Positions 7,411 through 28,500 are shown, counted from the stretch's first letter. The stretch: DNA of 30,512 bases from Candidatus Woesearchaeota archaeon (GCA_003561825.1 PWVO01000017.1:1-30512); one strand, 5' to 3'. Notes: generated by a model not told the origin, from the letters alone. Numbers and translations: made by a program.

Positions 7411-7459
7411 GAGTTGGATGGGGATGGATCATATCCGGTTATTCATCCCCGTCTAGCTC
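7411..7459 (+). terminator. Long G-U-rich hairpin at the convergent gene junction
   Basis: GAGTTGGATGGGGATGGA / TTCATCCCCGTCTAGCTC; the G-U pairs favour the + strand RNA. Confidence 0.5.
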
Positions 7460-8035
7460 CCTGATGTCGCCATCTATAACTTCTGATACAGGATCAGATA
7501 ATACAGATGCAGCTACACCACGAGATGTGGAATGTGGTAATAGTTTTTGAACTTGATGTTTCAAGTCTTTCGAGAATGCTTCTCGGCTGTCAGTGTCGAG
7601 GTACTGCCGAGCAGTTTCTCCAACGGCTTGTAAAAGGAGACTGATAACATTCACATGGATATAAACATGCTTTCCGTGTCTGATTTCATTGAGGCGACCA
7701 GAAGAGTATGCTACTGCTCTGAGCATTTTGGTAAGAAGCTCAAAGTCAACTTCTTCTTCAGATGCCGCCTCAAAGTACTTTACTTTGTAAGTTGCAAGCT
7801 CTTTGGTAAAGTCAAGAATCTCTTGGTCGTCTTCGAGCATCCTGACGACATAATCTCTCGTTCTTGCATCTACCATGTCTAACAGTGGAGGATAGCCTTG
7901 CTTCTGAATTCCTCCACTACGAGAATCATGATGGGTACAATATCCTTCGCCAGGATGAGTTGTGCCCCAACCTGCCGGCATCTTGCAAGGCCGGCCAGAT
8001 TTCGTCTTATAACCGCATTTCAGTTTATCATTCAT
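7439..8035 (-). CDS. Probable terminase small subunit-like protein (HGGxSTG-type zinc knuckle)
   Basis: CGYKTKSGRPCKMPAGWGTTHPGEGYCTHH resembles the N-termini of phage TerS-like proteins (CGAKT…C…GWGT.H.G.G.C..H); helical remainder. Confidence 0.55.
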   Translation of the reverse strand: MNDKLKCGYKTKSGRPCKMPAGWGTTHPGEGYCTHHDSRSGGIQKQGYPPLLDMVDARTRDYVVRMLEDDQEILDFTKELATYKVKYFEAASEEEVDFELLTKMLRAVAYSSGRLNEIRHGKHVYIHVNVISLLLQAVGETARQYLDTDSREAFSKDLKHQVQKLLPHSTSRGVAASVLSDPVSEVIDGDIRELDGDE

Positions 8036-8042
8036 AAACTCA

Positions 8043-8071
8043 ATCTTAGTATATGTAGTTTCTATTGTCAA
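8043..8071 (-). promoter_or_regulatory. Sigma70-type promoter for the inverted gene (likely leaderless)
   Basis: TTGACA (8071-8066), 17 bp, TAAGAT (8048-8043); predicted TSS about 8036-8035 coincides with the ATG. Confidence 0.65.
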
Positions 8072-8117
8072 GTATAATACAAAAATACTATACATAATCT
8101 ATGCAAAAAGGAGTAGT

Positions 8118-8336
8118 ATGGAAAAGATAAAGAACATAGAAGAGAATCTGGATATGATATATCTAAGACAGTTTTGTATGTATGCAGATTCTCTCCGTGA
8201 ACATGTTATGTTAGCGACTGTCATGCCAGTGGAACAAGTCTGGTTTGGTGTCGATGGAAATATGTATAAGTCTGGGATGAGGCTTACAACAAATCCCAGA
8301 AGAGAATCATTAAAGCCAAGGATAGTATATCCATGA
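8118..8336 (+). CDS. Hypothetical protein
   Basis: AAGGAG SD. Confidence 0.65.
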   Translation: MEKIKNIEENLDMIYLRQFCMYADSLREHVMLATVMPVEQVWFGVDGNMYKSGMRLTTNPRRESLKPRIVYP

Positions 8337-8548
8337 ACAAAACAAGAATTAGATTCCTAAATGACAGCGGCACAATAAAGGAAATTGAAGAGAACTGTAA
8401 GAACGTGAGACTTTCAGTGTATCTACCAGATTATCTCAAACATCTAGTAGCATTAGAAGCTCACAGACTAAGCACGGAAGACGAAAGGGTTTCGATGAGT
8501 AGTGTAGTGATCGAAGCTCTAAAGAGATATTTTAGGGAGGAGCAATGA
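8333..8548 (+). CDS. Ribbon-helix-helix (CopG/Arc-like) DNA-binding protein
   Basis: RLSVYLPDYLKHLV…SMSSVVIEALKRYF. Confidence 0.7.
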   Translation: MNKTRIRFLNDSGTIKEIEENCKNVRLSVYLPDYLKHLVALEAHRLSTEDERVSMSSVVIEALKRYFREEQ

Positions 8549-8937
8549 GCTACTGCAGATTCTCGGATGGCGATGTTTATATGTATCCGCATATTGATGG
8601 ATACATAGAGTGCTGCTTTTGTTCTCTGGCACAGCCGGATGGTTACAGATTACAACACTTCCATAACCATAAAGATGCGCTAGGCCATCTTCTCGAGCAT
8701 CGCAAAGCAGGACATCATGTTCCACAGTATGCAATTGACAGGCTTACAGTCGATATGAAGAGAGCAGAGTTGGAAAATCTGCTATGGGAGCTATGCAGTG
8801 CGCAGGGCCAGATAGCTAAGAGGAACGAGTCGGGATTAGATTGGGGCATTGACAACTATTACAAGAGGCGTGAAGAGCTGATGGATGAGATTCTTGATAT
8901 AGCTCTCGATTATAGGAGGAACAATGACGAACTTTGA
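8545..8937 (+). CDS. Hypothetical protein
   Basis: MSYCRFS…IECCFC…HLLEH; GGAGG SD. Confidence 0.7.
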   Translation: MSYCRFSDGDVYMYPHIDGYIECCFCSLAQPDGYRLQHFHNHKDALGHLLEHRKAGHHVPQYAIDRLTVDMKRAELENLLWELCSAQGQIAKRNESGLDWGIDNYYKRREELMDEILDIALDYRRNNDEL

Positions 8938-9127
8938 TAATGAAGAATCTACAAAAGTTAAAACTTACGTAATAGGAGTTTGTACAGGATTCGTGGCATG
9001 TGCGAACATGGTATCAGTAGCATTTTATGTTCGACCTGTCCTGTTAGCACTTGTAATTAACATTGTAATGACTCTTGCTTTTCTGATAATTGGTATAGTT
9101 ATTGTAGCATGGGAGGAATGTTCATGA
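8924..9127 (+). CDS. Small two-TM membrane protein
   Basis: Two hydrophobic stretches. Confidence 0.65.
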   Translation: MTNFDNEESTKVKTYVIGVCTGFVACANMVSVAFYVRPVLLALVINIVMTLAFLIIGIVIVAWEECS

Positions 9128-9510
9128 CTTGGACAGAATTCAGTGACATGTATTCAGGTGGAGATCCTAAGCTTCGTGAGACGAAAATCTACATCGAAGC
9201 TCCAGAAGAGATAGCGGCCAAGGTGTTCACAGCTATCTATGGCAGAAATCCACGACATGTAACATGCTCATGTTGTGGGCCTGACTATGGCATCATAGAA
9301 GATGATACGCTTGAAGAAGCTACAGACTATGCAAGAAAGTTGTCAGCGCAAGAAAAAACTTTCTACGAGAAAGAAACATATGTACGCATGAAAGATTTAG
9401 AGGGTATAAGCATAGAAGAGTTTGAAAAACAACCCCACGTAAAGATCTGGCGAAAAGAAAGCTCTTTACAGATTAGCAAGATGTATTACCTGCAAAGGGG
9501 GGAAAAATGA
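9124..9510 (+). CDS. Hypothetical phage protein (DMYSGG…TCSCCGPDY)
   Basis: GGAGG SD; ATGA overlap. Confidence 0.7.
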   Translation: MTWTEFSDMYSGGDPKLRETKIYIEAPEEIAAKVFTAIYGRNPRHVTCSCCGPDYGIIEDDTLEEATDYARKLSAQEKTFYEKETYVRMKDLEGISIEEFEKQPHVKIWRKESSLQISKMYYLQRGEK

Positions 9511-9683
9511 GCAATCGAGATGAACTGATGTATATCGTAGGTGTGAGTATAGGGTATGTTATCATGTGGATTATGCTCGATGTAATACGTCCAGCAGATC
9601 ATTGGGCTGCAACAGCTTTTGTTCTAGTCTTCTCTGCAATTGCGGTGTTCGTTGTACCCAAAATAATTGGGAAGATACTATGA
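9507..9683 (+). CDS. Small two-TM membrane protein (58 aa)
   Basis: MSNRDELMYIVGVSIGYVIMW…FVLVFSAIAVFVV; overlaps both neighbours by ATGA. Confidence 0.65.
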   Translation: MSNRDELMYIVGVSIGYVIMWIMLDVIRPADHWAATAFVLVFSAIAVFVVPKIIGKIL

Positions 9684-10234
9684 GTAAACAAATAGATAAT
9701 GCAATGCAGCTCAGATTCAAGCTGGCTGCCAACTATCCAGAGGTTCTAGAGATACTATCTCTAGTTCTTTCTGGGCCGAGATGCGGTGGAGACTTAGAGC
9801 CTGTTCTGAATACTATATTCTCAGAATATTTTCGTTACCTTTATTACGTAAGGGGTGATGAAAGCAATCATGAGAATAGCTCGTTCTCTTGGAGATCAGA
9901 AAGATATGAATTGTCAAGAGATGTAAGTACGCTAGCTAAGAGAGATGCTGATATGATTATATGCATAGCTAGTGCTTATAACATGGCCGGCTGTGATGCA
10001 TACAAGATACCAGCTATCAGATTGCTTGACAATCTCAAGTTCTTCTTCAGTGCAGTTATAGACGTGAGTAATTTGTTAGTTGAACTTGAGCTGGAAGAAA
10101 GCATCATTCAAGAAATTGCCAGAATGCGTAAGATTGCTAAGTGGTTTCTAGATGACGTAAACAGCTTTGCCTGCAACAGCTTCGCAAGCCATTTAGAGAT
10201 TTCGAGAAAGTATAAGGTGTTATCAGTAGATTGA
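9680..10234 (+). CDS. Hypothetical protein
   Basis: ATGA-coupled start at 9680 (MSKQIDN…). Confidence 0.65.
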   Translation: MSKQIDNAMQLRFKLAANYPEVLEILSLVLSGPRCGGDLEPVLNTIFSEYFRYLYYVRGDESNHENSSFSWRSERYELSRDVSTLAKRDADMIICIASAYNMAGCDAYKIPAIRLLDNLKFFFSAVIDVSNLLVELELEESIIQEIARMRKIAKWFLDDVNSFACNSFASHLEISRKYKVLSVD

Positions 10235-10244
10235 AAGGAAATCT

Positions 10245-10484
10245 ATGATGTCAATTGAAACAAAGATAGGACTTCTACTGGCTGGCATGTGCATCGTTTC
10301 TTTTGTAATAGGATGTACTGCTGGTATGGAAATCTCTGTGAACAGAATCTGCAGGAATGCTAGATATGACAGCGGTTCCTATGATGGAGGCGTTGCAAGA
10401 TGTAAGTACATAGTAGATGGCATTGAGATGTATATACCTGTCGTAAACCTTATAGAAGTACCTGGTGTGTTATCAACGGACTGA
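10245..10484 (+). CDS. Membrane-anchored hypothetical protein
   Basis: N-terminal hydrophobic helix. Confidence 0.6.
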   Translation: MMSIETKIGLLLAGMCIVSFVIGCTAGMEISVNRICRNARYDSGSYDGGVARCKYIVDGIEMYIPVVNLIEVPGVLSTD

Positions 10485-10537
10485 GGAGGAGTCCGATGGT
10501 ATGTCGGTATGGCGTTTTGATCGCTGTACCATCAATG

Positions 10538-10566
10538 CATCTCGCATAGTGTGAGATGTGTATAAT
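10538..10566 (+). promoter_or_regulatory. TATAAT promoter with an upstream palindrome, ahead of the Ubl operon
   Basis: CATCTCGCA-tag-TGTGAGATG (10538-10558), TATAAT (10561-10566), AAGGAGGT SD. Confidence 0.55.
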
Positions 10567-10594
10567 AACTTTAGATCTTAAGGAGGTCTAAAAA

Positions 10595-10840
10595 ATGATT
10601 ACGAATGAGAACGTTATCAGCTTGCGCCTGGTCGTCGCCGGCCAGGATGTCCGCACCGTCAGGATGGTCGAGGGCACGACCCTCGGTCAGCTCCTTCAGA
10701 ATCACACCGACAGGGATGGCCGCACGCTGTCCCCATCCTCCGGCCAGTTCTTCGTCAACGGAGCGTCCATTAATGAGGATTACGAGTTCGTAGACGATAA
10801 TCAGATGTTGATTGTCGTGGGCGCAGTTTACAACGGGTAA
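10595..10840 (+). CDS. Ubiquitin-like (beta-grasp, ThiS/MoaD-like) modifier ending in Gly
   Basis: 81 aa; GTTLGQLL…FFVNG…YEFVDDNQMLIVVGAVYNG*; first gene of an E2/JAB/E1 cluster. Confidence 0.8.
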   Translation: MITNENVISLRLVVAGQDVRTVRMVEGTTLGQLLQNHTDRDGRTLSPSSGQFFVNGASINEDYEFVDDNQMLIVVGAVYNG

Positions 10841-10871
10841 TCTCGTTGTAGGCTGTTAGTCTTATAACTCT

Positions 10872-10896
10872 GGGGAGGCCTCCTCCTGGCCTCCCC
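10872..10896 (+). other. GC-rich hairpin between Ubl and E2
   Basis: GGGGAGGCC-tcctcct-GGCCTCCCC, no U-tract. Confidence 0.6.
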
Positions 10897-10922
10897 TAAG
10901 GGTTGCAGAAAAGGGGAAAACC

Positions 10923-12269
10923 ATGATAAACAGATACACTATAAAAGGCCTGTATAATTTCATCAAACAAGACCAAGCAAGAGATATAGGTTTCTATCAA
11001 TCTCAGCATAGACGTGTGGCAAGAAACTACATCGAAAGAAACCCAGATTATTGCATCAAGATGAAGACCGGCTACTACGAACATGAAGAGATGGAAGAGA
11101 AATATCCATATATTGTATTCAGCAACAAAATTCCCGGAAATTATGGTAGTACTGAGCATTGCCTGATAATGATTACACCCGAAAGGGTCTACAGCGACTA
11201 TCAATCTTGCAGTGAATGTGCAGGAGATACAATTCTGATTGTAGACCCGAGTTCAAGAAGTTTTGTGACAGGCAAGGTAAGGCCTGATGTATTTTTACAA
11301 TCAGGTCTTAGGATTTCAGATAATGGAGCATTTATCCTTCTTGATGATGGACTGAGAGAGATATATAACTTAGTAGAAAACAAATACACATTTGACTATT
11401 ATGGATGGGAAGATTTATGCTTACAGATATCCAAGAAGTACAACAAGTGCGAGAGATCTCTAGCTATAGAGTTCATCGAGCACATGCATGGAAATGAAAG
11501 AAAGTCATGTCCTGAGATTTGTGGAGATGTAAAGTCTGTAAGCTCTGATGATTTTGATATTATATATACAACAAAAAGGAGTTTTGGATTTAAGAAAAGT
11601 TTGTATATATCGGGCGTGCTCAAGAGATTCAGGTCGGTTGGACAGTACGATATAGCAGTAGAAAAAGATGTGTTTATAAGACTGATATTTAATCTCGTAA
11701 GAGATGATTATTACTCAGGCCCTCAATATGATAATAACCCAAATGCATATAACGTATATGCGCATTCATACCCTCAGACAGAGATACACCCACACATTAC
11801 AAACGATAGCAGTTGCTTGGGTAGTGTCTGCATGGACAAGGGTTCTATAAAAGAGATGTTAATGGCAGGCCAAGATGAAGCGGCAGCAATAATAGCTGCT
11901 GGAAATCTAACTTATATCAATCCAAACGATTGGTACTCATCGGAGTTTATCATTCAGAATGGCTATTATATATGCGAGTACTGTGAAGGTATACAATCTA
12001 TAGAAGACGCATTTTATTGTGATCATTGCGGGTGTTACTTCTGCGAATCACATCCAACAACCGCTTGCAGCATCTGTGGCGACGAAAGATGTGAATATTG
12101 TGGTCATAGGGCATCATGCGAAAATTGTTACATAACTATATGCTATGACTGTGTAAACTCCGGCAGAACCGGCAGATGTGATGTATGTCAAGCTGTAATC
12201 TGTAACGACTGCTACGAAAGAGACAGGACTTGTAGATACTGTGAAACAAGGGAGGATGAAAATGAGTAA
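10923..12269 (+). CDS. E2-like (UBC-fold) conjugating protein fused to a C-terminal multi-CxxC zinc-finger array
   Basis: H289-PHITNDSSCLGSVC303-MD resembles HPN…GxVCLD; nine CxxC plus one CxxH in the last ~95 aa; operon context. Confidence 0.65.
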   Translation: MINRYTIKGLYNFIKQDQARDIGFYQSQHRRVARNYIERNPDYCIKMKTGYYEHEEMEEKYPYIVFSNKIPGNYGSTEHCLIMITPERVYSDYQSCSECAGDTILIVDPSSRSFVTGKVRPDVFLQSGLRISDNGAFILLDDGLREIYNLVENKYTFDYYGWEDLCLQISKKYNKCERSLAIEFIEHMHGNERKSCPEICGDVKSVSSDDFDIIYTTKRSFGFKKSLYISGVLKRFRSVGQYDIAVEKDVFIRLIFNLVRDDYYSGPQYDNNPNAYNVYAHSYPQTEIHPHITNDSSCLGSVCMDKGSIKEMLMAGQDEAAAIIAAGNLTYINPNDWYSSEFIIQNGYYICEYCEGIQSIEDAFYCDHCGCYFCESHPTTACSICGDERCEYCGHRASCENCYITICYDCVNSGRTGRCDVCQAVICNDCYERDRTCRYCETREDENE

Positions 12270-13182
12270 AATAGAAGATCTTATGAAAATGCTACTTGAA
12301 ATAATTGAGACAAGCAAGACAGTAAAAGAGAAAGAAGCAAAGGTTGTAAAGCCTCCTCCCAGAGAGGCTAATCCAGACGTAGGAGATAGAACACTAATCA
12401 TAAGCGATGAAGTGGTTAGAAGTCTCCTTACAGCTGCATATCTCGTTGGGGATATCGAGCTGAATGGACTTGGTTTGGTATCAGAGAATGACGGCGAGAT
12501 TCTCTGGGAGAAAGCATGGGTTCTCTCGGACATAGATGGATTAAAAGACAATGGCGAAAGAAGGCCGTCTGGGTCATCCGTTGCTGTAAAGATGGACCCG
12601 GAACAAATGGCGGTTAAGATTGCAGAAGTCGTAGAGATGGGAAGAAGCCCACGAGATTTAAGATTGTACTGGCATACACATGGGATCTGGTCAAGCTTCT
12701 TTTCGAGTACAGATCTAAAAGCAATTCAAGGGGAAGTAGAGTTTGCAGGGGGGAATGAAATCATCAACGTAGTTTTTGTTCCTGGCAGCTTTGATGCCAG
12801 GATAGATAGCGGTCTTGGGGATGATAAATCCGCCGAGACAATAGGAACCATAAAGATGGAGGGTGAAAATGAGAAATATAGAGTCGTTGGGAATGTTCAG
12901 TCGTCAAAGTTACATCTGTCAACCATCCAGACTGCCGGAAGTCAGTATGATTGGGGCCGGGCACCTGGGAAGCATGATAGCCTTTGGTCTCAGTCAGATT
13001 GGCGTCGGGGCCAAGACAACACAGGAGGAGAGTTCGCTGGTTGTCTCCTCGAGGAACTCGATGAATTGTGCCCAGACTGTGGAGGGTTCATCGAAGAAGT
13101 TGATATTGGGGAGTGGGGAAAGATCTGCTGCGACTGCGGCAGAATCATGGGTGGCGAGCTGGATGGAATCAAACTATTCTAA
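12262..13182 (+). CDS. JAB/MPN+ metalloprotease (deconjugase) with a C-terminal zinc ribbon
   Basis: WHTHGIWSSFFSSTD = HxH-x7-S-x2-D; upstream Glu in IELNG; GGAGG SD 6 nt before ATG 12262. Confidence 0.9.
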   Translation: MSKIEDLMKMLLEIIETSKTVKEKEAKVVKPPPREANPDVGDRTLIISDEVVRSLLTAAYLVGDIELNGLGLVSENDGEILWEKAWVLSDIDGLKDNGERRPSGSSVAVKMDPEQMAVKIAEVVEMGRSPRDLRLYWHTHGIWSSFFSSTDLKAIQGEVEFAGGNEIINVVFVPGSFDARIDSGLGDDKSAETIGTIKMEGENEKYRVVGNVQSSKLHLSTIQTAGSQYDWGRAPGKHDSLWSQSDWRRGQDNTGGEFAGCLLEELDELCPDCGGFIEEVDIGEWGKICCDCGRIMGGELDGIKLF

Positions 13183-13744
13183 TCTATTAGAAGCTATTAA
13201 GTCGTCATGCATTGTTATCTTTGACGATGACATAGTGAACTTGCACAATGTAGCAGCATCATACTATACACGAAAACAATCTATATTACAGATGCCAAAG
13301 GCGCAGGCAATGGTCGAGAACATGAATGCACTTATGGATGTAAATGTTCTCGGTATAAAAGCCAAGGTTCCATCAGGTTTACCGGTGTCGTATGCAGTAA
13401 AACCAGTGGTAATCATTAGTACAGATTCCAGGAGATCCAGGGTCCTCTTCTGGAGCCACGTCAAGAGAGAAGATGATGTTGAACTCCTTATAGATGCCAG
13501 GTCAGGTTGGGATGTAACATCTATCCATACATGCAAGATGGACGATGGTAGAAGCCGTCAGGCGTACAGTGATAGTCTAGAAGCAGAAGGCGGCAATATA
13601 CCATGTTCTGCTAGAGCAGTGGGTTATAACAGCATTGGTGTAGCTGCCAACGTAGCTGCAATTGTAAAGAGCTATGCTAATAACGAGACATTTCCAAGTT
13701 ACATAATGCAGGACTATAAAACATGGTCTAATATAATTGTGTAA
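12869..13744 (+). CDS. ThiF/E1-family activating enzyme with a 66-aa insertion
   Basis: FSRQ, IGAGHLGS, FDDDIVNLHN, IDARSG, candidate catalytic Cys in NIPCSAR; GGAGG at 12858-12862. Confidence 0.85.
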   Translation: MRNIESLGMFSRQSYICQPSRLPEVSMIGAGHLGSMIAFGLSQIGVGAKTTQEESSLVVSSRNSMNCAQTVEGSSKKLILGSGERSAATAAESWVASWMESNYSNLLEAIKSSCIVIFDDDIVNLHNVAASYYTRKQSILQMPKAQAMVENMNALMDVNVLGIKAKVPSGLPVSYAVKPVVIISTDSRRSRVLFWSHVKREDDVELLIDARSGWDVTSIHTCKMDDGRSRQAYSDSLEAEGGNIPCSARAVGYNSIGVAANVAAIVKSYANNETFPSYIMQDYKTWSNIIV

Positions 13745-13755
13745 GGAGAATAACA

Positions 13756-14379
13756 ATGGAAATCACAGCAGTTGCTTTGCACAAATGCGCCATTGTGCAT
13801 TACGGATTGAGGGCAGTATTAGAAGAGAAGTACGACTGTAACCTTCTAGGCGCTGTAAGTGCTGGTGAAGCTCAAATGCACATGAGAAGTTATGCATGTA
13901 ACATCATGTTCATAGAGCTTCCAGAATTCACAAGCAGTGTAGCAAGCTTTACATCTTCACTGCCTGTAATCTGTCTTTCTGACAGCTCGAAAGTAGATAT
14001 CCTGCAAGACGCGATTAGCCTTGGCGCATCAGGTTATTTACTTATGTCAGACGAGATAGATGAATACTATATAGTATTAGAATCGGCATTAAAAGGCAAA
14101 CTTAGAGCACGATCAGAGGACGTAAAAAGACTAATAAATAAGTTAGAAGAGAATCGGCGCGTGAGCACAGAAGCGTTATCAGATCTAACGTCACGAGAAG
14201 TAGATGTATTAGAGCTTCTCGTGCAAGGGAAAGATAACAAAGAGATAGCAGATGAGTTATCAATAGCGTATGGAACGGCAAGAAATAAAGTCTGGCAAAT
14301 ACTCTCTAAAACCCATCAACCCAATAGAACTGCTCTAGCACTGTGGGCAGTTGAAAACAACATAGTAGATAGAGAGTAA
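13756..14379 (+). CDS. NarL/LuxR-family regulator with a degenerate receiver domain
   Basis: LTSREVDVLELLVQGKDNKEIADELSIAYGTARN HTH; REC-like N-terminus lacking the phospho-Asp and the Lys. Confidence 0.85.
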   Translation: MEITAVALHKCAIVHYGLRAVLEEKYDCNLLGAVSAGEAQMHMRSYACNIMFIELPEFTSSVASFTSSLPVICLSDSSKVDILQDAISLGASGYLLMSDEIDEYYIVLESALKGKLRARSEDVKRLINKLEENRRVSTEALSDLTSREVDVLELLVQGKDNKEIADELSIAYGTARNKVWQILSKTHQPNRTALALWAVENNIVDRE

Positions 14380-14381
14380 GC

Positions 14382-15218
14382 ATGGAGAATGTTGACTTTG
14401 GTGGAGTAATCGGCCAGCAACAGGCCAAAAACCTTCTGGTTCGTGCTAAAGAGAATAGGATGAACATCTTATTCGTTGCACCACCAGGGTACGGAAAAAC
14501 TCTATTGGCTCGGAAATACTTAGAATCATTTAACTCATCCATTGTAGAAATAAACGGCACAGAGAAAATAAGCAATATAGTAGAGAAGATTAATAAAAAC
14601 TCTGACAAACCCATCTTGATAGATGAAGCACATAAGATGAGAGGGTCGGAAGCGATATATAAACATCTTGATGGAGAAGTTGAGAGAAGACCAACATTTG
14701 AAGATCTTACATTAGATATAACTGATATTGATCTAAGTATCATCTTTGCATTAGCTACTACTGACGAGGGCAGATTAACAGATGCTCTTGTTAGCAGATT
14801 AGTAAAAGTAGCATTAAGACCCTACAGTCATGATGACTTAGTAGAAATAGCTAAGCTAGAACACAAACACAAAAAAGATGTTTTAGCTGAAATAGCAACA
14901 TTAGCTAGAGGGAATCCAAGGAGGGTCAAGTTATTGTCAAAACTGCTTTCAGGTAGATCGCTTAAGAGTGGTCGAGATGTACAATCTCAGTTACAACTAC
15001 TGGGACTGCCAATGGGATTAGATGCAAGAGAAAGTAGGATGATGAAAATATTAGTGAGCAAGCCAAGAGGTATAAGTACTATAGCTGGTTTAATGTCAAC
15101 AGATTCTCATACAATTAGGATGATAGAAAGCGACCTCATACAGTCTGGGCTAGTAGAGGTTACATCGAAAGGTAGATCTCTTACAAGTGATGGCATCGAG
15201 GTCGCAAAGGAGTTGTGA
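14382..15218 (+). CDS. ruvB: RuvB-like AAA+ ATPase (compact)
   Basis: Walker A APPGYGKT, Walker B IDEAH, ATT, SR, RGNPR, GLD, winged-helix tail ESDLIQSGLVEVTSKGR. Confidence 0.75.
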   Translation: MENVDFGGVIGQQQAKNLLVRAKENRMNILFVAPPGYGKTLLARKYLESFNSSIVEINGTEKISNIVEKINKNSDKPILIDEAHKMRGSEAIYKHLDGEVERRPTFEDLTLDITDIDLSIIFALATTDEGRLTDALVSRLVKVALRPYSHDDLVEIAKLEHKHKKDVLAEIATLARGNPRRVKLLSKLLSGRSLKSGRDVQSQLQLLGLPMGLDARESRMMKILVSKPRGISTIAGLMSTDSHTIRMIESDLIQSGLVEVTSKGRSLTSDGIEVAKEL

Positions 15219-15219
15219 G

Positions 15220-15438
15220 ATGTGTAAAGAACTCAAGAAGACAATTAGAACGATGGCAAGCAGAATGGAGTACAGGCTTTCTGACGATGAAATAAACTTT
15301 ATTATAACAAGGGCCTGTGATAATACACATTTTAGGAAACAACTGAGATGGATAGTACAACTATGCGTAGAGGATTTCATAGAAGATCAATATGCTAAAC
15401 ATGCAGACTTCATAAATGATTTGATGGATGATGTTTGA
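15220..15438 (+). CDS. Hypothetical protein
   Basis: AAGGAG SD; ATG 15220. Confidence 0.6.
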   Translation: MCKELKKTIRTMASRMEYRLSDDEINFIITRACDNTHFRKQLRWIVQLCVEDFIEDQYAKHADFINDLMDDV

Positions 15439-15454
15439 TTAAGGAGAAAACAAC

Positions 15455-15832
15455 ATGACCAAAATAGAAACTACGGACACAGTGCAAGAAGCAATCATCA
15501 AGATGTCAGACGGAAACCCAGGTGCAGTAAGGGTTCTGTGTGATGTAATAAATAACGGCAGAGCTATAGATCCAGATAGTGCGATGGGGTCATTTGGGTC
15601 TATAGCAATCTTGGATATGTTAGAGATTTATGGGTCTGGGATATGGATGCTTTACAAGGATGTATGCGGAGAAGATATCGTAAAGATGATTGCCGTACTT
15701 CGCGCATGGCAGATCGGGTTGGTTTCAGCATCTACAATTACTTATGCTATGGAAAATCGTGGAGATGGTTTAGATGTAGATGATGTGCTATCTCGAGTAC
15801 AAGAAAGATTACCAGACTTTGGAAAGGAGTGA
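15455..15832 (+). CDS. Hypothetical phage protein (MSDGNPGA motif)
   Basis: AAGGAG SD. Confidence 0.7.
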   Translation: MTKIETTDTVQEAIIKMSDGNPGAVRVLCDVINNGRAIDPDSAMGSFGSIAILDMLEIYGSGIWMLYKDVCGEDIVKMIAVLRAWQIGLVSASTITYAMENRGDGLDVDDVLSRVQERLPDFGKE

Positions 15833-24623: not shown

Positions 24624-24895
24624 TTTACACTATAGGTTACGCAGAACATTACGAGAAACAATTTAAAGAAAGCGAAGCACAAGGCAAACCTCTCATAAAA
24701 ATAGGGCGCACCATAGATTACAATGGCGGGTCTGTCTGGCGCACACGCGAAGAAGCACAAAGCTACTTAGACGGACGGGGCATGCATGAATACTCTGTAT
24801 ACGGAGTCCTGGCTGATTGGGACAGGGATACAGAAGGAAACAAATATCATTCATTCAATAATTTATTAGTTAATTCGGAGTTAGTAAAGATTTAA
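24620..24895 (+). CDS. Hypothetical protein
   Basis: ATGA coupled. Confidence 0.7.
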   Translation: MIYTIGYAEHYEKQFKESEAQGKPLIKIGRTIDYNGGSVWRTREEAQSYLDGRGMHEYSVYGVLADWDRDTEGNKYHSFNNLLVNSELVKI

Positions 24896-27800
24896 TGTTA
24901 ACAGGAAACCAAAAAGAGGTATTTACAAGAAGATACGTTAGGAAAGACGCACAAGGAAATCCTATAGAAACAGTAGAAGATGTATTCCACAGAGTCGCAC
25001 TCAACGTAGGTATAGTAGAAAGACAGTGGCACGACGACAATGAAGTAGAAAAAACAATTAAAGACTTCGAGTCCATGCTATCCGACATGGAATTCCTCCC
25101 CAATTCCCCAACGTGGACAGGCGCAGGGACTCCACTAGGTTTACTTTCAGCATGCTTTGTGCTTCCAGTAGAAGACGACATGGGACGCAAGCGCGGTGGC
25201 ATCTTTGACACGCTTAAAGATATGGCATTAATATTCCAGACCGGAGGAGGTATAGGACTATCATTAAGCAAGCTACGACCAGATGGTGCATACATCAGCA
25301 CGTCAGGCGGTAAGGCTACAGGGCCAGTAGGATTTCTAAAAGTATTCGATAAAGCATCAGAAGTGATTTCGCAGGGAGGATGCTTAACACCAGATACTCT
25401 AGTATTTACTGATAAGGGCATGCTACGCCTTGACGAGATCATTCCTAACCCTAAAGAGGGATGGGGCAATCACAGTATAAAGGTTGCCACTGATGAAGGT
25501 GTAAAACGATCTCCAGCATTCTATAACAATGGTATATCCAAGACCCTCAAAGTTTACACCAATTCGGGTATCAGTATCGCGGGAACGCCAGACCACAAAG
25601 TCAAATTGATGACTAAAAACGGTCTCCTGTGGAAAGAGATAAAGCATCTGCAAAAGGGCGATTACATAGCGATAAAGCTGGGAGAGCACACAGGGCACAA
25701 GCAAGAGCTAGATCATCCAACTATAACTCACCACAACCAAATCGAGCCCACCTTCCCAAATACACTGAACAAAGACCTAGCATTCTTTCTAGGCTACTTA
25801 ACCGGAAATGGATTCGTCGCATCTAATGAAGGTGATTACAGAGTGGGTGTCACAGTTCCTCATAAATCATACCTAATGAAAGAGATGCCACGGCTTATAA
25901 CATCCCTGTTCAGCGTACCAGTCTATCGCAGTGTGGACAAGGGCAATAGCTCCACAACCCTTATCGTTCACAATCGTGCTCTCAAAGAGTTTCTTGAAAT
26001 GAATGACTTGGATAAAAAGGACAGTCTCACAGCCCGCATCCCCAAGAAGATACGCATGAGTCCAAAGAGTATCTTAGGTGTATACCTGCAAGGACTGTTT
26101 GAAGCTGACGGGTCTTTATGTCATGGATACCCACAGCTAAATACATCGTCACACAGACTTGCCAATGAGATAGCTACAATGCTAATTGGCCTCGGGTGCC
26201 CCGTAAACATCAGGGCTCGCCAGCCATCTAAAAACCGTTGGGGTGACAGTACATCCTATTTTGTTAGGCCGAAATCACACATTGGACTTAATTCTTACAG
26301 AAAGTATGTTCCCTGCCACAAAGAATCACGTTTTATGGCAGTCGAGGATCATAAGCCAGATCTCTCCAGAGAGCAGTCTTACCGCCTGCCATATCCGAAT
26401 CAGTGGATAGGTAAAGTCCTAAACCTGGTAACACGAAAAGAGTACCCACGTCTTAGAAAGAGTTTGCTGCGGTACAGAAGGGGCAGTAGAAACCTTACTG
26501 TATCTGCATATAAGTCGCTGTCGCAAGACTATGAGGTCTTTAGAAATAACGCAATGCCAGTAGATAATATCTGGTTTGTTGAGGTTACAAAAGTGGAGCC
26601 CGCTGGCGAGTCACTGACACTAGATCTGGAGGTTGAAGACAATCATACGTATTTAGCCAATGGCATCATAACACATAACCCTCGCCGGGGCGCTGGCATG
26701 GCAGTACTCCGTTACGACCATCCTGACATCTTAGATTTTATCACTTGCAAACAGTCCGAAAACGACATCACAAACTTTAACATTTCAGTAGCAGTAGACA
26801 ATGATTTCATGACAGCGGTTAAAGAAGACTTAGAGATAGCATTAATAAACCCCCAGGACGGTAAGGTCTGGGATAATATCAGTGCTAGATCTATAATGAA
26901 CGCTATAACCTCTAATGCTGTCAACAATGGCGAACCAGGGCTTTTATTTTTAGACAGAGCAAATGAAGACAACCCATGCCCGTCACTAGGCAGTTATCAT
27001 GCTACAAACCCTTGCGGTGAGCAGTTTCTCAAACCCTATCAAAACTGCTGCTTAGGTACAATCAACTTAGTCAAACATCTCGACTCGAACAACAAAATAA
27101 ATTACGAGAAACTAAACAGAACAATTAAGCTAGGAGTCCGCTTTCTCGACGATGTTATTGACGCTAACAAATACATCAAATCCATACCCGAACTAGAAGA
27201 GAAAGCAAAGGAAACACGCAGAATCGGCCTCGGTATCACAGGACTTGCAGACGTTCTTTACCTTAACAATATAAGATATGGCAGTGAAGAAGCTGTAAGT
27301 TTTATAACGAATTTAATGATGGATATAAGAGCTACAGCAATAGAGACGAGTGTTGAGTTAGCACAAGTACGAGGGCCATTTCCTGCATTTGAAGAAAGTA
27401 TATACGTAACAGATGAATGGTATAAAAACATCAACAAAAAAGGCCCTTTTGAATACTTAAGATCTCATTTTACGAAAATAGGAATCCGTAATGCCACACA
27501 GCTCACAATAGCCCCGACAGGAACGAGGTCAACTATCGCTGGTGTAGAAGGTTATGGATGCGAACCTGTATTTGCCCTTGCATACACCAGAATGCTAGTA
27601 GAACGAGAAGGCGACGTAGAACTCCAATATACTAGCCCATTGTTTAAGCAAGCATTAATTGATGAAGGCATAGAAGGAAATGAGTTAGAACGCATCCTCA
27701 ACGACGTTTCCAAGACTGGCAGCTGTCAAGGCGTAGAAGGCATACCTCAACACATCAAAGATGTTTATGTTGTATCACGCGATATAACTCCTAAAGAACA

Positions 27801-28500
27801 TGTAGACATGCAGGCTGCAGCACAATCGTGGATAGATAGCAGTATATCGAAGACTATCAACTGTCCCGAAGGTACAACAAAAGAAGATATAGAAGAAATA
27901 TTTAATTACGCTTGGCAAAAGAGATGCAAGGGGATTACCGTTTACGTAGCCAACTCGAGAGAAAAAACAGTGCTACAAACAAATAACGAAAAAGACGAAG
28001 GCCCCATAAATAACGTCGAAACACTATACGAACGTCCATTAGAGCTTACTGGAAAAACTATACGCCAACCAACACCATTAGGTACAGCTTTCGTTACACT
28101 AAACTACAATGAAGAAGACGAACCATTCGAGGTCTTCGTAAACATTGGTCGCGCAGGTTCTGACGTATCCGCTGTCGCCGAAGGACTTGGCCGACTAATA
28201 TCCCTTATCCTAAGAATCCCGCCAAACATGGATTCCAAGTCAAGACTCAAGCACGTCGTAGAACAGCTGAAAGGCATAGGCGGTGGAAACCCATTAGGAT
28301 TCGGCAAGAACCGCATCAGAAGCCTGCCTGATGGTGTAGCAGAGGTCTTAGGGAAACAACTAGGTATTATCGACTACAACGGTTGTGGGTGCGACGAGAC
28401 ATTAGAAACACTAGACCTTTGCCCAGAATGCGGCAACGCTTCACTAATAACATCAGAGGGATGTAGCCACTGTAAGCTATGCGGATTTAACAAGTGCTAA
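24895..28500 (+). CDS. nrdJ: Adenosylcobalamin-dependent (class II) ribonucleotide reductase with intein
   Basis: PNSPT, SACFV, TNPCGEQ, NCCLGTINL, IAPTG, ISKTIN, TSCPD-like C-terminal domain and CPECG…CKLC. Confidence 0.92.
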   Translation: MLTGNQKEVFTRRYVRKDAQGNPIETVEDVFHRVALNVGIVERQWHDDNEVEKTIKDFESMLSDMEFLPNSPTWTGAGTPLGLLSACFVLPVEDDMGRKRGGIFDTLKDMALIFQTGGGIGLSLSKLRPDGAYISTSGGKATGPVGFLKVFDKASEVISQGGCLTPDTLVFTDKGMLRLDEIIPNPKEGWGNHSIKVATDEGVKRSPAFYNNGISKTLKVYTNSGISIAGTPDHKVKLMTKNGLLWKEIKHLQKGDYIAIKLGEHTGHKQELDHPTITHHNQIEPTFPNTLNKDLAFFLGYLTGNGFVASNEGDYRVGVTVPHKSYLMKEMPRLITSLFSVPVYRSVDKGNSSTTLIVHNRALKEFLEMNDLDKKDSLTARIPKKIRMSPKSILGVYLQGLFEADGSLCHGYPQLNTSSHRLANEIATMLIGLGCPVNIRARQPSKNRWGDSTSYFVRPKSHIGLNSYRKYVPCHKESRFMAVEDHKPDLSREQSYRLPYPNQWIGKVLNLVTRKEYPRLRKSLLRYRRGSRNLTVSAYKSLSQDYEVFRNNAMPVDNIWFVEVTKVEPAGESLTLDLEVEDNHTYLANGIITHNPRRGAGMAVLRYDHPDILDFITCKQSENDITNFNISVAVDNDFMTAVKEDLEIALINPQDGKVWDNISARSIMNAITSNAVNNGEPGLLFLDRANEDNPCPSLGSYHATNPCGEQFLKPYQNCCLGTINLVKHLDSNNKINYEKLNRTIKLGVRFLDDVIDANKYIKSIPELEEKAKETRRIGLGITGLADVLYLNNIRYGSEEAVSFITNLMMDIRATAIETSVELAQVRGPFPAFEESIYVTDEWYKNINKKGPFEYLRSHFTKIGIRNATQLTIAPTGTRSTIAGVEGYGCEPVFALAYTRMLVEREGDVELQYTSPLFKQALIDEGIEGNELERILNDVSKTGSCQGVEGIPQHIKDVYVVSRDITPKEHVDMQAAAQSWIDSSISKTINCPEGTTKEDIEEIFNYAWQKRCKGITVYVANSREKTVLQTNNEKDEGPINNVETLYERPLELTGKTIRQPTPLGTAFVTLNYNEEDEPFEVFVNIGRAGSDVSAVAEGLGRLISLILRIPPNMDSKSRLKHVVEQLKGIGGGNPLGFGKNRIRSLPDGVAEVLGKQLGIIDYNGCGCDETLETLDLCPECGNASLITSEGCSHCKLCGFNKC
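25381..26679 (+). mobile_element. Intein (433 aa) with a LAGLIDADG endonuclease; +1 residue is Pro
   Basis: QGG|CLTPDT…YLANGIITHN|PRRGA; LAGLIDADG-like blocks FFLGYLTGNG and YLQGLFEADG. Confidence 0.93.

Follow-up and report, generated by a model that had tools for sequence, protein, structure and literature searches.

The window analysed here is the whole of a 30.5-kb contig (PWVO01000017.1, hereafter C33) from a salt-lake metagenome, assigned to a metagenome-assembled genome (MAG) of 1.1 Mb in 226 contigs. At 10595-13744 (all coordinates refer to the full window) it carries four genes that we read as a phage-borne cassette for conjugation of a ubiquitin-like protein (Ubl), serving as a resident function in infection and not as a swappable defence island; we give this reading a probability of about 0.65. 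The genes encode, in order, a Ubl, an E2-like protein ending in a cysteine array, a JAB/JAMM metalloprotease (JAB) and an E1-like adenylating enzyme (Table 1). All four lie co-oriented and tightly packed on the plus strand, the JAB start overlapping the E2 stop by 8 nucleotides (nt) and the E1 start falling within JAB; from these overlaps, together with conserved Shine-Dalgarno sites, the cassette genes are predicted to be translationally coupled. The original prediction, made from motifs in the sequence, had described the same four genes as a Ubl, an E2-zinc-finger fusion, a JAB with an intact motif and a ThiF/E1. The genes and their motifs are all present on the plus strand as described, and each of these identities is upheld by the evidence set out below.

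The mechanism that we propose draws its catalytic steps from knowledge of these families. E1 would bind ATP through its GxGxxG/DxD/Lys/Asp site and adenylate Gly81 of the Ubl, which would then be handed as a thioester, probably through E1 Cys246, to the E2-like protein at its Cys303. Joined in cis to the E2, the zinc array may serve as an integral E3 of RING-like kind or as an adaptor for substrates, so that target proteins would be modified on lysines through isopeptide bonds. The JAMM protease would remove or edit the tags and would also mature the Ubl in those distant relatives where it runs on beyond the Gly. In such a scheme the cassette would tag host or phage proteins in infection, possibly countering defence.

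Motif reading was needed because the standard libraries gave nothing above cut-off (curated or gathering scores) for any cassette protein. Pfam yielded Prok-JAB (E 0.0028, 18 bits vs 25) and ThiF (8e-5), both below cut-off, and no match for the window Ubl or E2-like protein; PHROGs matched none of the four. PADLOC and NCBIfam returned weak E1-type matches below cut-off. Those in PADLOC were 'E1-E2' models (Cap2-type) of the cyclic-oligonucleotide-based antiphage signalling system (CBASS), and the best in NCBIfam was adenyl_thiF at 3e-6, with all ThiF/MoeB scores of that library far under cut-off. At E<=1 no PADLOC model for Ubl conjugation matched the Ubl, E2 or JAB, in a release whose Bil models are unverified, and the sole PADLOC match of the E2-like protein, PDC-M63B (0.0029), is unrelated. 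Tblastn against 50,697 GenBank phage records gave no match for the window E1 and no relative for a distant E2 (P0012). Pattern scans of IMG/VR (E2, E1 alignment) and of JGI metagenome contigs (E1 alignment) were without a match, and word-indexed protein searches with E2 and Ubl returned the query alone. The comparisons that follow draw on five close loci from other samples (L002-L006) and three distant ones (L007, L008 and L009); 'six loci' denotes the window with L002-L006. Across homologues at 25-55% identity the cassette motifs are invariant, and profile and fold searches lead to the expected superfamilies, an agreement that exceeds chance.

An E1 fold is supported for the protein at 12869-13744 by an AlphaFold2 (AF2) model built on six homologues. 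The model has a predicted template modelling score (pTM) of 0.63, and its predicted local distance difference test (pLDDT) is 65-88 in the core and ~29 at residues 50-102. Compared with the PDB by Foldseek, it adopts a Rossmann-type E1 fold, matching UBA5 (5.7e-7), Cap2 (7e-7), UBA3, ThiF and MoeB at E 6e-7 to 3e-5, with a probability of 1.00 and 105 matches at E<=1e-3. The residues of the ATP site are in place, from the Arg finger through GxGxxG, DxD, Lys and Asp to the Cys past the crossover; R12, Q13, G29, G31, G34, D119, D121, N127, K144, D186 and C246 are invariant even when distant relatives at 25% identity are included. By sequence, the closest solved E1 is the Cap2 E1 domain (GAGxLGSMIA motif, E 0.03), and hhalign places the window protein with a distant relative at a probability of 94.7%. 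The window E1 stays below the Pfam ThiF (PF00899) gathering score, at 22.3 bits vs 28.1, an insertion splitting the domain, and the distant E1s that lack this insertion exceed the cut-off at 98.6 and 77.7 bits (4e-28 and 9.5e-22). Its ATG at 12869 follows GGAGG by 6 nt.

The protein at 10923-12269 is accepted here, at the level of sequence, as a member of the UBC/E2 superfamily. Its homologues comprise two proteins of L002, P0008 (25% identity, E 2e-23) and P0009, and nine distant relatives retrieved by a whole-library hidden Markov model search, in which HPH-x3-G-x-[IV]-C ... L...L.TYNP.sAY is followed by a CxxC array. In 12 sequences HPH (residues 289-291), Cys303, which sits in a GSVCMD motif, and Asn333-Pro are invariant. 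A profile of the 12-sequence core, with the Cys array excluded, gave 142 matches at E<=10 against PDB sequences. The best 60 of these 142 are all UBC E2 enzymes, and eight have E<1e-3 (best 5e-5, 1z3d). The alignment is in register: HPH falls on HPN, the invariant Cys on the catalytic one, and the two NP motifs on each other. Furthermore, E2 families (Prok-E2_D, UQ_con, E2-CBASS and UFC1 among them) make up 84/100 of the nearest named Atlas clusters in a language-model comparison of residues 195-350, at low scores of 0.78-0.82, and Pfam UQ_con gives weak in-register matches in two E2 relatives (0.07-0.09). Membership, and with it the E2 identity given in the original prediction, rests on the sequence profiles because the AF2 model, from a 12-sequence alignment, is too poor (pLDDT 46) to show a UBC fold, its order of secondary structure being compatible with UBC at that low confidence. 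Foldseek of this model gave nothing at E<=0.001 and is uninformative; matches to chimallin and PUR-alpha (E>0.02) and to TSG101-UEV (E ~1) were accordingly left unused.

Residues 351-440 of the same protein hold exactly ten CxxC pairs. An 11-sequence profile of this array matches the RNF4 RING (2e-5, single domain), RING2, the MID1 B-box, FYVE and IBR fingers, so that a RING-like zinc tail with an E3-like role is reasonable, if unproven. In L002 the E2-plus-zinc gene occurs as tandem paralogues (L002:2152-3357 and L002:3357-4664), one of them with a canonical HPN and a shorter Cys tail, which suggests that the carrier/adaptor has diversified for different targets.

A JAMM/MPN-type protease is supported for the protein at 12262-13182. 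Its JAMM residues (Glu 12457, His 12673, His 12679, Ser 12703 and Asp 12712, with HTH-x7-S-x2-D at 12673-12714) are all invariant in the window, L003, L007, L009 and A3. The structural neighbours of residues 48-211 in the Atlas are Prok-JAB/MPN/RPN11 models, with template modelling (TM) scores by query of 0.40-0.54 from a weak query model (pLDDT 0.57). JAB-E1 fusion proteins occur among these neighbours. Matches to Pfam Prok-JAB stay below threshold both for the window protein and for 4/5 relatives scanned (E 4e-4 to 0.04), and hhalign relates the window JAB to that of L007 at a probability of 74%. A JAB family profile searched against the PDB found no JAB and gave a weak match to the L37Ae zinc ribbon alone. 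The likely start, ATG 12262, lies 6 nt after GGGAGG.

The Ubl is a predicted beta-grasp modifier with an exposed C-terminal Gly. Its model in the ESM Atlas (pTM 0.63) matches SAMP2/ThiS/MoaD, RnfH and SUMO clusters at TM 0.68-0.75. The only close homologue, from L002, is 50% identical and ends in GAVFNG before the stop. The original prediction held that no C-terminal trimming is needed. This stands for the window and L002, where both proteins end in NG, but not for the distant cassettes, whose Ubls resemble ThiS at the C-terminus and run on for a few residues beyond the Gly: that of L007 (L007:5653-5880) ends in KGA and that of L008 (L008:115-348) in EGAIYRKAA, one or seven residues past the Gly. 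In view of these tails JAB probably also matures the Ubl in L007 and L008, a step not called for in the subfamily of the window. When the Ubl is aligned with the distant ones by MAFFT with gaps, Gly76 (VVG|AVYNG) is suggested as the conjugation site; from an ungapped alignment and the ThiS-like spacing after the last strand, the terminal Gly81 is favoured.

Table 1 Features of the cassette and of the JAB/E1 overlap, in window coordinates
Feature	Position	Strand	Details
Ubl	10595..10840	+	81 amino acids, beta-grasp; free C-terminal Gly81; ends in VVGAVYNG before the stop
E2-like protein	10923..12269	+	448 amino acids: N-terminal region 1-188, UBC-like core 189-349, array 351-440
UBC-like core	11487..11969	+	HPH 11787-11795; Cys303 11829-11831; NP motif, Asn333 11919-11921
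Cysteine array	11973..12242	+	ten CxxC pairs, ~five predicted zinc sites; RING/B-box-like at family level
JAB/JAMM metalloprotease	12262..13182	+	306 amino acids; C-terminal zinc ribbon; open reading frame opens at GTG 12241, likely start ATG 12262
JAB zinc ribbon, CxxC-x15-CxxC	13069..13137	+	JAB frame, written over the E1 insertion
E1-like adenylating enzyme	12869..13744	+	291 amino acids, single ThiF-type domain
E1 motif FSRQ	12896-12907	+	
E1 motif GxGxxG	12953-12970	+	GAGHLG
E1 motif DxD	13223-13231	+	
E1 Lys144	13298	+	
E1 Asp186	13424	+	
E1 Cys246	13604	+	PCS
E1 insertion	13010..13207	+	~66 codons, from helix alpha1 (IGVG) to strand beta2 (FDDD); poorly conserved, predicted disordered
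E1 ribosome-binding site, GGAGG	12858..12862	+	embedded in JAB codons M-E-G-E
Dual-coding overlap	12869..13182	+	JAB frame 1, E1 frame 2, 314 nt

The arrangement of the cassette recurs in the relatives. The close loci are 47-56% identical to the window in E1 and carry the JAB/E1 end of the cassette; L002, the only one of the five to span all four genes, holds the Ubl and the two E2 paralogues. It is syntenic with the window on both flanks of the cassette at ~50% identity. In every close locus that extends beyond E1, an open frame follows that matches the GerE/LuxR-type regulator gene of the window, and the four that extend furthest also match the start of the window's RuvB-like ATPase gene. 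Among the distant loci, L007 is a 29-kb phage-like contig with thymidine kinase, amidase and RlaP, and has the order small Ubl, E2(Zn), JAB, ThiF. L009 begins at E2 and runs E2(Zn), JAB-motif protein, ThiF, and L008 covers Ubl and E2. The gene order given in the original prediction is kept in L002 and L007. Megablast of the region found no match in 50,697 GenBank phages.

That the cassette is phage-borne, as the original prediction proposed, agrees with the gene content of the window, with its viral neighbours in the Atlas and with the synteny just described. Pfam and PHROG scans identify phage replication and nucleotide-metabolism genes: a ribonucleotide reductase (RNR) with an intein-sized insert, an HNH endonuclease, two DNA methyltransferases, an ATPase, a clamp-loader/RuvB-like protein, an RNA ligase, a transglycosylase and a resolvase. 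Most remaining open reading frames (ORFs) are orphans, and almost all genes lie on one strand. Uroviricota are in the majority among the nearest Atlas clusters of Ubl, JAB and E2. Among the window ORFs scanned no cellular marker was seen. The contig therefore looks viral, and the window may be regarded as the replication/early region of a phage. A scan for promoters and terminators across 9000-15500 found fewer sites than in shuffled sequence and gives no evidence either way on an operon.

The host is a separate matter. The bin is archaeal, with S4e present, bacterial L19 absent and a basic proteome (median isoelectric point ~9 on most contigs). C33, the longest contig of the bin, encodes proteins with a median isoelectric point of 5.6, unlike the bin proteome, and carries regulators of GerE/sigma-70 region 4 type and GGAGG ribosome-binding sites. 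It may have been mis-binned, or it may belong to a virus of a host other than the bin's archaeon.

JAB and E1 share their coding sequence over a considerable length. In 6/6 loci both frames are free of stops across 314-362 nt, in which the third frame has 6-10 stops. When synonymous codons were resampled with one protein fixed, the second frame remained free of stops in 0-2% of trials at each locus; multiplied over loci, these fractions come to ~1e-16 and ~1e-20. In the part that encodes the E1 N-terminus, mean pairwise identity is 66% in the E1 frame and 30% in the JAB frame; at 13010-13182 it is ~21-22% in both frames. Here the E1 frame runs through its insertion, which is Ser/Thr/Ala-rich, variable in length and predicted to be disordered, and the four Cys of the ribbon, with G-E-L-D/E-G downstream, are kept in the JAB frame in the six loci. 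A disordered insertion of E1 thus carries, in its -1 frame, the code for the predicted zinc ribbon of JAB. Since the E1s of L007 and L009 are without the insertion and the L007 JAB is without the ribbon, the overlap arrangement is derived in the window's lineage. An intron, an intein or an assembly error was rejected as the source of the insertion: both frames are open, indels are multiples of three, and six independent assemblies agree.

Programmed frameshifting, yielding a JAB-E1 fusion or a ribbon-containing E1, would offer another account of this overlap, as would a sequencing artefact. The existence of JAB-E1 fusions among the structural neighbours and the fact that, read continuously, the ribbon falls exactly within the E1 insertion both lend themselves to frameshifting. 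We nevertheless consider these explanations very improbable. An artefact is ruled out, since six assemblies, made from different samples, show the same arrangement. Neither frame is interrupted anywhere along the overlap, so that no shift is needed, and a ribbon-containing E1 would require two compensating shifts (a slippery site was not searched for). GGAGG and the ATG of E1 are kept in 6/6 loci, with ATGGAGG 5-8 nt upstream of that ATG, and this conservation favours independent initiation over frameshifting. Similarly improbable, on the present evidence, is that the cassette is a sulfur-carrier system of ThiS/MoaD/TtuB style, in which E1 would thiocarboxylate the Ubl for thiolation of a cofactor, tRNA or phage DNA, or that its E1 modifies a peptide C-terminus in the manner of MccB/PaaA. 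Such a role would fit a Ubl that is closest to ThiS/MoaD and a minimal, ThiF-sized E1 whose best NCBIfam match, far below cut-off as it is, is adenyl_thiF; similar GenBank phage genes are annotated 'thiamine biosynthesis protein', and a radical-SAM gene lies 2 kb upstream in L007. Yet an E2 with the invariant HPH..Cys core stands beside E1 in 4/4 loci that cover the DNA upstream of JAB (window, L002, L007 and L009), and we know of no E2-like component in sulfur-carrier systems; the presence of this conserved-Cys E2 argues for protein tagging. A JAMM protease and a RING-like array likewise suit protein conjugation. The original prediction had also noted the lack of sulfur-transfer, thiamine or Moco genes nearby. 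Pfam or PHROG scans of 34 window ORFs, a set that leaves some small ORFs outside, likewise detected none of these families, nor a thiouridylase, rhodanese, cysteine desulfurase or ThiG/MoaE.

A more serious contender retains the biochemistry and alters its purpose: a Bil-like system carried as defence cargo on a temperate phage or mobile element, tagging the virion proteins of competitors in superinfection exclusion, to the advantage of both the host and the element residing in it. We regard this as unlikely, though well ahead of the explanations above. The gene order is identical to that of BilABCD, which tags a phage tail protein (10.1101/2023.09.04.556158; PMC10557695), and among solved structures the window E1 is nearest the CBASS Cap2 E1. 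Against it, the Ubl, E2 and JAB are without a PADLOC match to Ubl conjugation and the E1 has weak Cap2-type matches; the E1 is a single domain of 291 amino acids, as opposed to the two-domain BilD; and the window ORFs scanned include neither an integrase nor a lysogeny gene. Moreover, the surroundings of the cassette are not those of a variable hotspot: it belongs to a block of co-oriented replication genes, and its flanks are syntenic with those of a relative at ~50% identity. Because of this position in a syntenic replication/early block, a resident phage function is preferred over defence cargo.

Several observations nonetheless weigh against a resident conjugation system used in infection. 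The E1 has HNVAAS in place of the canonical NLxRQ, without its Arg-Gln, and is without a ubiquitin-fold domain for E2 binding. The AF2 model of the E2-like protein is poor. The window array searched by itself against the PDB found nothing, its RING-like match being limited to the family profile; the array is, moreover, cysteine-rich and prone to bias, its composition can inflate RING-profile scores, and AF2 confidence is low there. Structural phage genes are absent from the window, and C33 was binned with a small archaeal MAG. Finally, phages and prophages often carry defence systems, and a Bil-like exclusion role accordingly keeps a small share of our belief. The broader proposal, that prokaryotic viruses run a Ubl cascade of their own offensively or for regulation, with an E2-RING fusion tagging host proteins (in defence or proteostasis) or phage proteins, is one that we advance tentatively and hold to be rather less probable than its negation. 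On this view the window's lineage would have made its cascade more compact still, by overprinting the protease's zinc ribbon on a disordered E1 loop.

The nearest of the known systems share some features with the cassette and differ in others. BilABCD, a bacterial, ISG15-like anti-phage system whose BilD has an inactive and an active adenylation domain (PMC10557695, 10.1101/2023.09.04.556158), is alike in its order of Ubl, E2, JAMM protease and E1, in a Ubl ending in Gly and in thioester-transfer cysteines of E1 and E2. The order of the BilABCD operon is kept in L002, L007 and the parts spanned by L008 and L009; by sequence, membership of the Bil system finds no backing in PADLOC. The window differs in the 190-residue N-terminal extension and ten-CxxC array of its E2, in the zinc ribbon of its JAB, in its single ThiF-type E1 domain and in a location within a phage replication block and not a bacterial defence island. 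CBASS type II Cap2/Cap3 (PMC10097602; PDB 7tsq, 7tsx, 7to3) offers a close E1 in sequence and fold and an accompanying JAMM protease. Cap2, however, is an E1-E2 fusion, whereas the window has E1 and E2 as separate genes and a free Ubl. Scanned window ORFs yielded neither a CD-NTase nor an effector. The Caldiarchaeum subterraneum cascade (PMC3082918, PMC5654768) likewise brings together in one gene cluster a Ubl and an E1, a zinc finger of RING type and a UBC-type E2 whose motif is HPN-like. In the window the fingers are fused to E2 in cis, form ~five sites and are RING-like only at the level of the family profile; the context is viral, and the sequences are unrelated beyond the superfamily. 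ThiS-ThiF and MoaD-MoeB share a beta-grasp protein with a C-terminal Gly and a minimal E1 adenylase, with strong ThiF/MoeB fold matches; to these the window adds an E2, a JAMM protease and a zinc array, and no sulfur or cofactor partner was seen among the ORFs scanned.

Two phage systems deserve separate mention. The lambda/T1 proteins TAPI and TAPK pair a phage beta-grasp protein with a conserved C-terminal Gly with an adjacent JAB; they constitute a tail-assembly module without E1 or E2 (Iyer et al. 2006, PMC1779556), whereas the window holds a full cascade among replication genes. Cultured crAss-like and Flavobacterium psychrophilum phages (such as PQ006092 and KT876724) have an E1-like gene 28-33% identical to the L007 E1, with a JAMM-motif gene (HSH..S..D) directly upstream, in the replication region. 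As carriers of the same cassette, such cultured phages were rejected: they have JAB-E1 pairs and no recognisable E2, that is, neither an HPH/HPN core nor a CxxC array in the neighbouring genes, and no JAB/E1 dual coding. In both records (L010, PQ006092 70543-79217; L011, KT876724 60001-68555) a 400-residue JAMM-motif protein stands before an E1-like 'thiamine biosynthesis protein' and is itself preceded by an unknown protein of 420-433 amino acids. These genes could be an overlooked conjugation-like module in tractable phages.

Full-text searches of the literature found no description of a complete phage-encoded cascade or of an E2-plus-zinc-array family. What sets the cassette apart is that it is apparently phage-borne, that its predicted E2 is fused to a RING-like array and that JAB and E1 are dually coded. 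To our knowledge, Ubl conjugation has so far been characterised in bacteria only as anti-phage defence (CBASS Cap2/Cap3 and Bil). Were our reading correct, a stable cascade within a phage replication block would mean that viruses use the same chemistry as Bil and CBASS defence, of which the cassette would be the mirror image. Eukaryotic viruses exploit ubiquitin, and the cassette would be a prokaryotic counterpart of that exploitation. A directly testable question then arises, namely which proteins the phage tags and to what end. By joining an E2 to a RING-like array, the protein would unite E2 and E3 in minimal form on a single polypeptide, of interest both as a compact tool for conjugation and for the question of how E3 ligases evolved. 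The 314-nt overlap, for its part, is a clean natural example of overprinting, in which a folded domain of one protein is written over the disordered spacer of another.

Some further features of the window may be recorded. Directly upstream of the cassette, a segment of ~2.2 kb (8335-10595) holds small genes, some of them for predicted membrane proteins (8924-9127, 9507-9683 and 10245-10484). By tblastx these genes lack a counterpart in the part of L002 that separates its Ubl from the gene matching window 8120-8335, and the segment has the look of a variable insert. At 7439-8095 the minus strand encodes a protein of 217 amino acids that is 79% identical to its L002 counterpart, as against ~50% for the cassette proteins. 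It matches no Pfam family and gives a marginal PHROG match (E 0.0098), and its gene is among the few minus-strand ORFs of at least 90 codons without a larger overlapping plus-strand ORF. The RNR (24895-28500, 1201 amino acids) matches RNR profiles at residues 9-162 and 596-1201, and residues 162-266 give an intein-like match to a terminase family, for which an intein is the most likely explanation.

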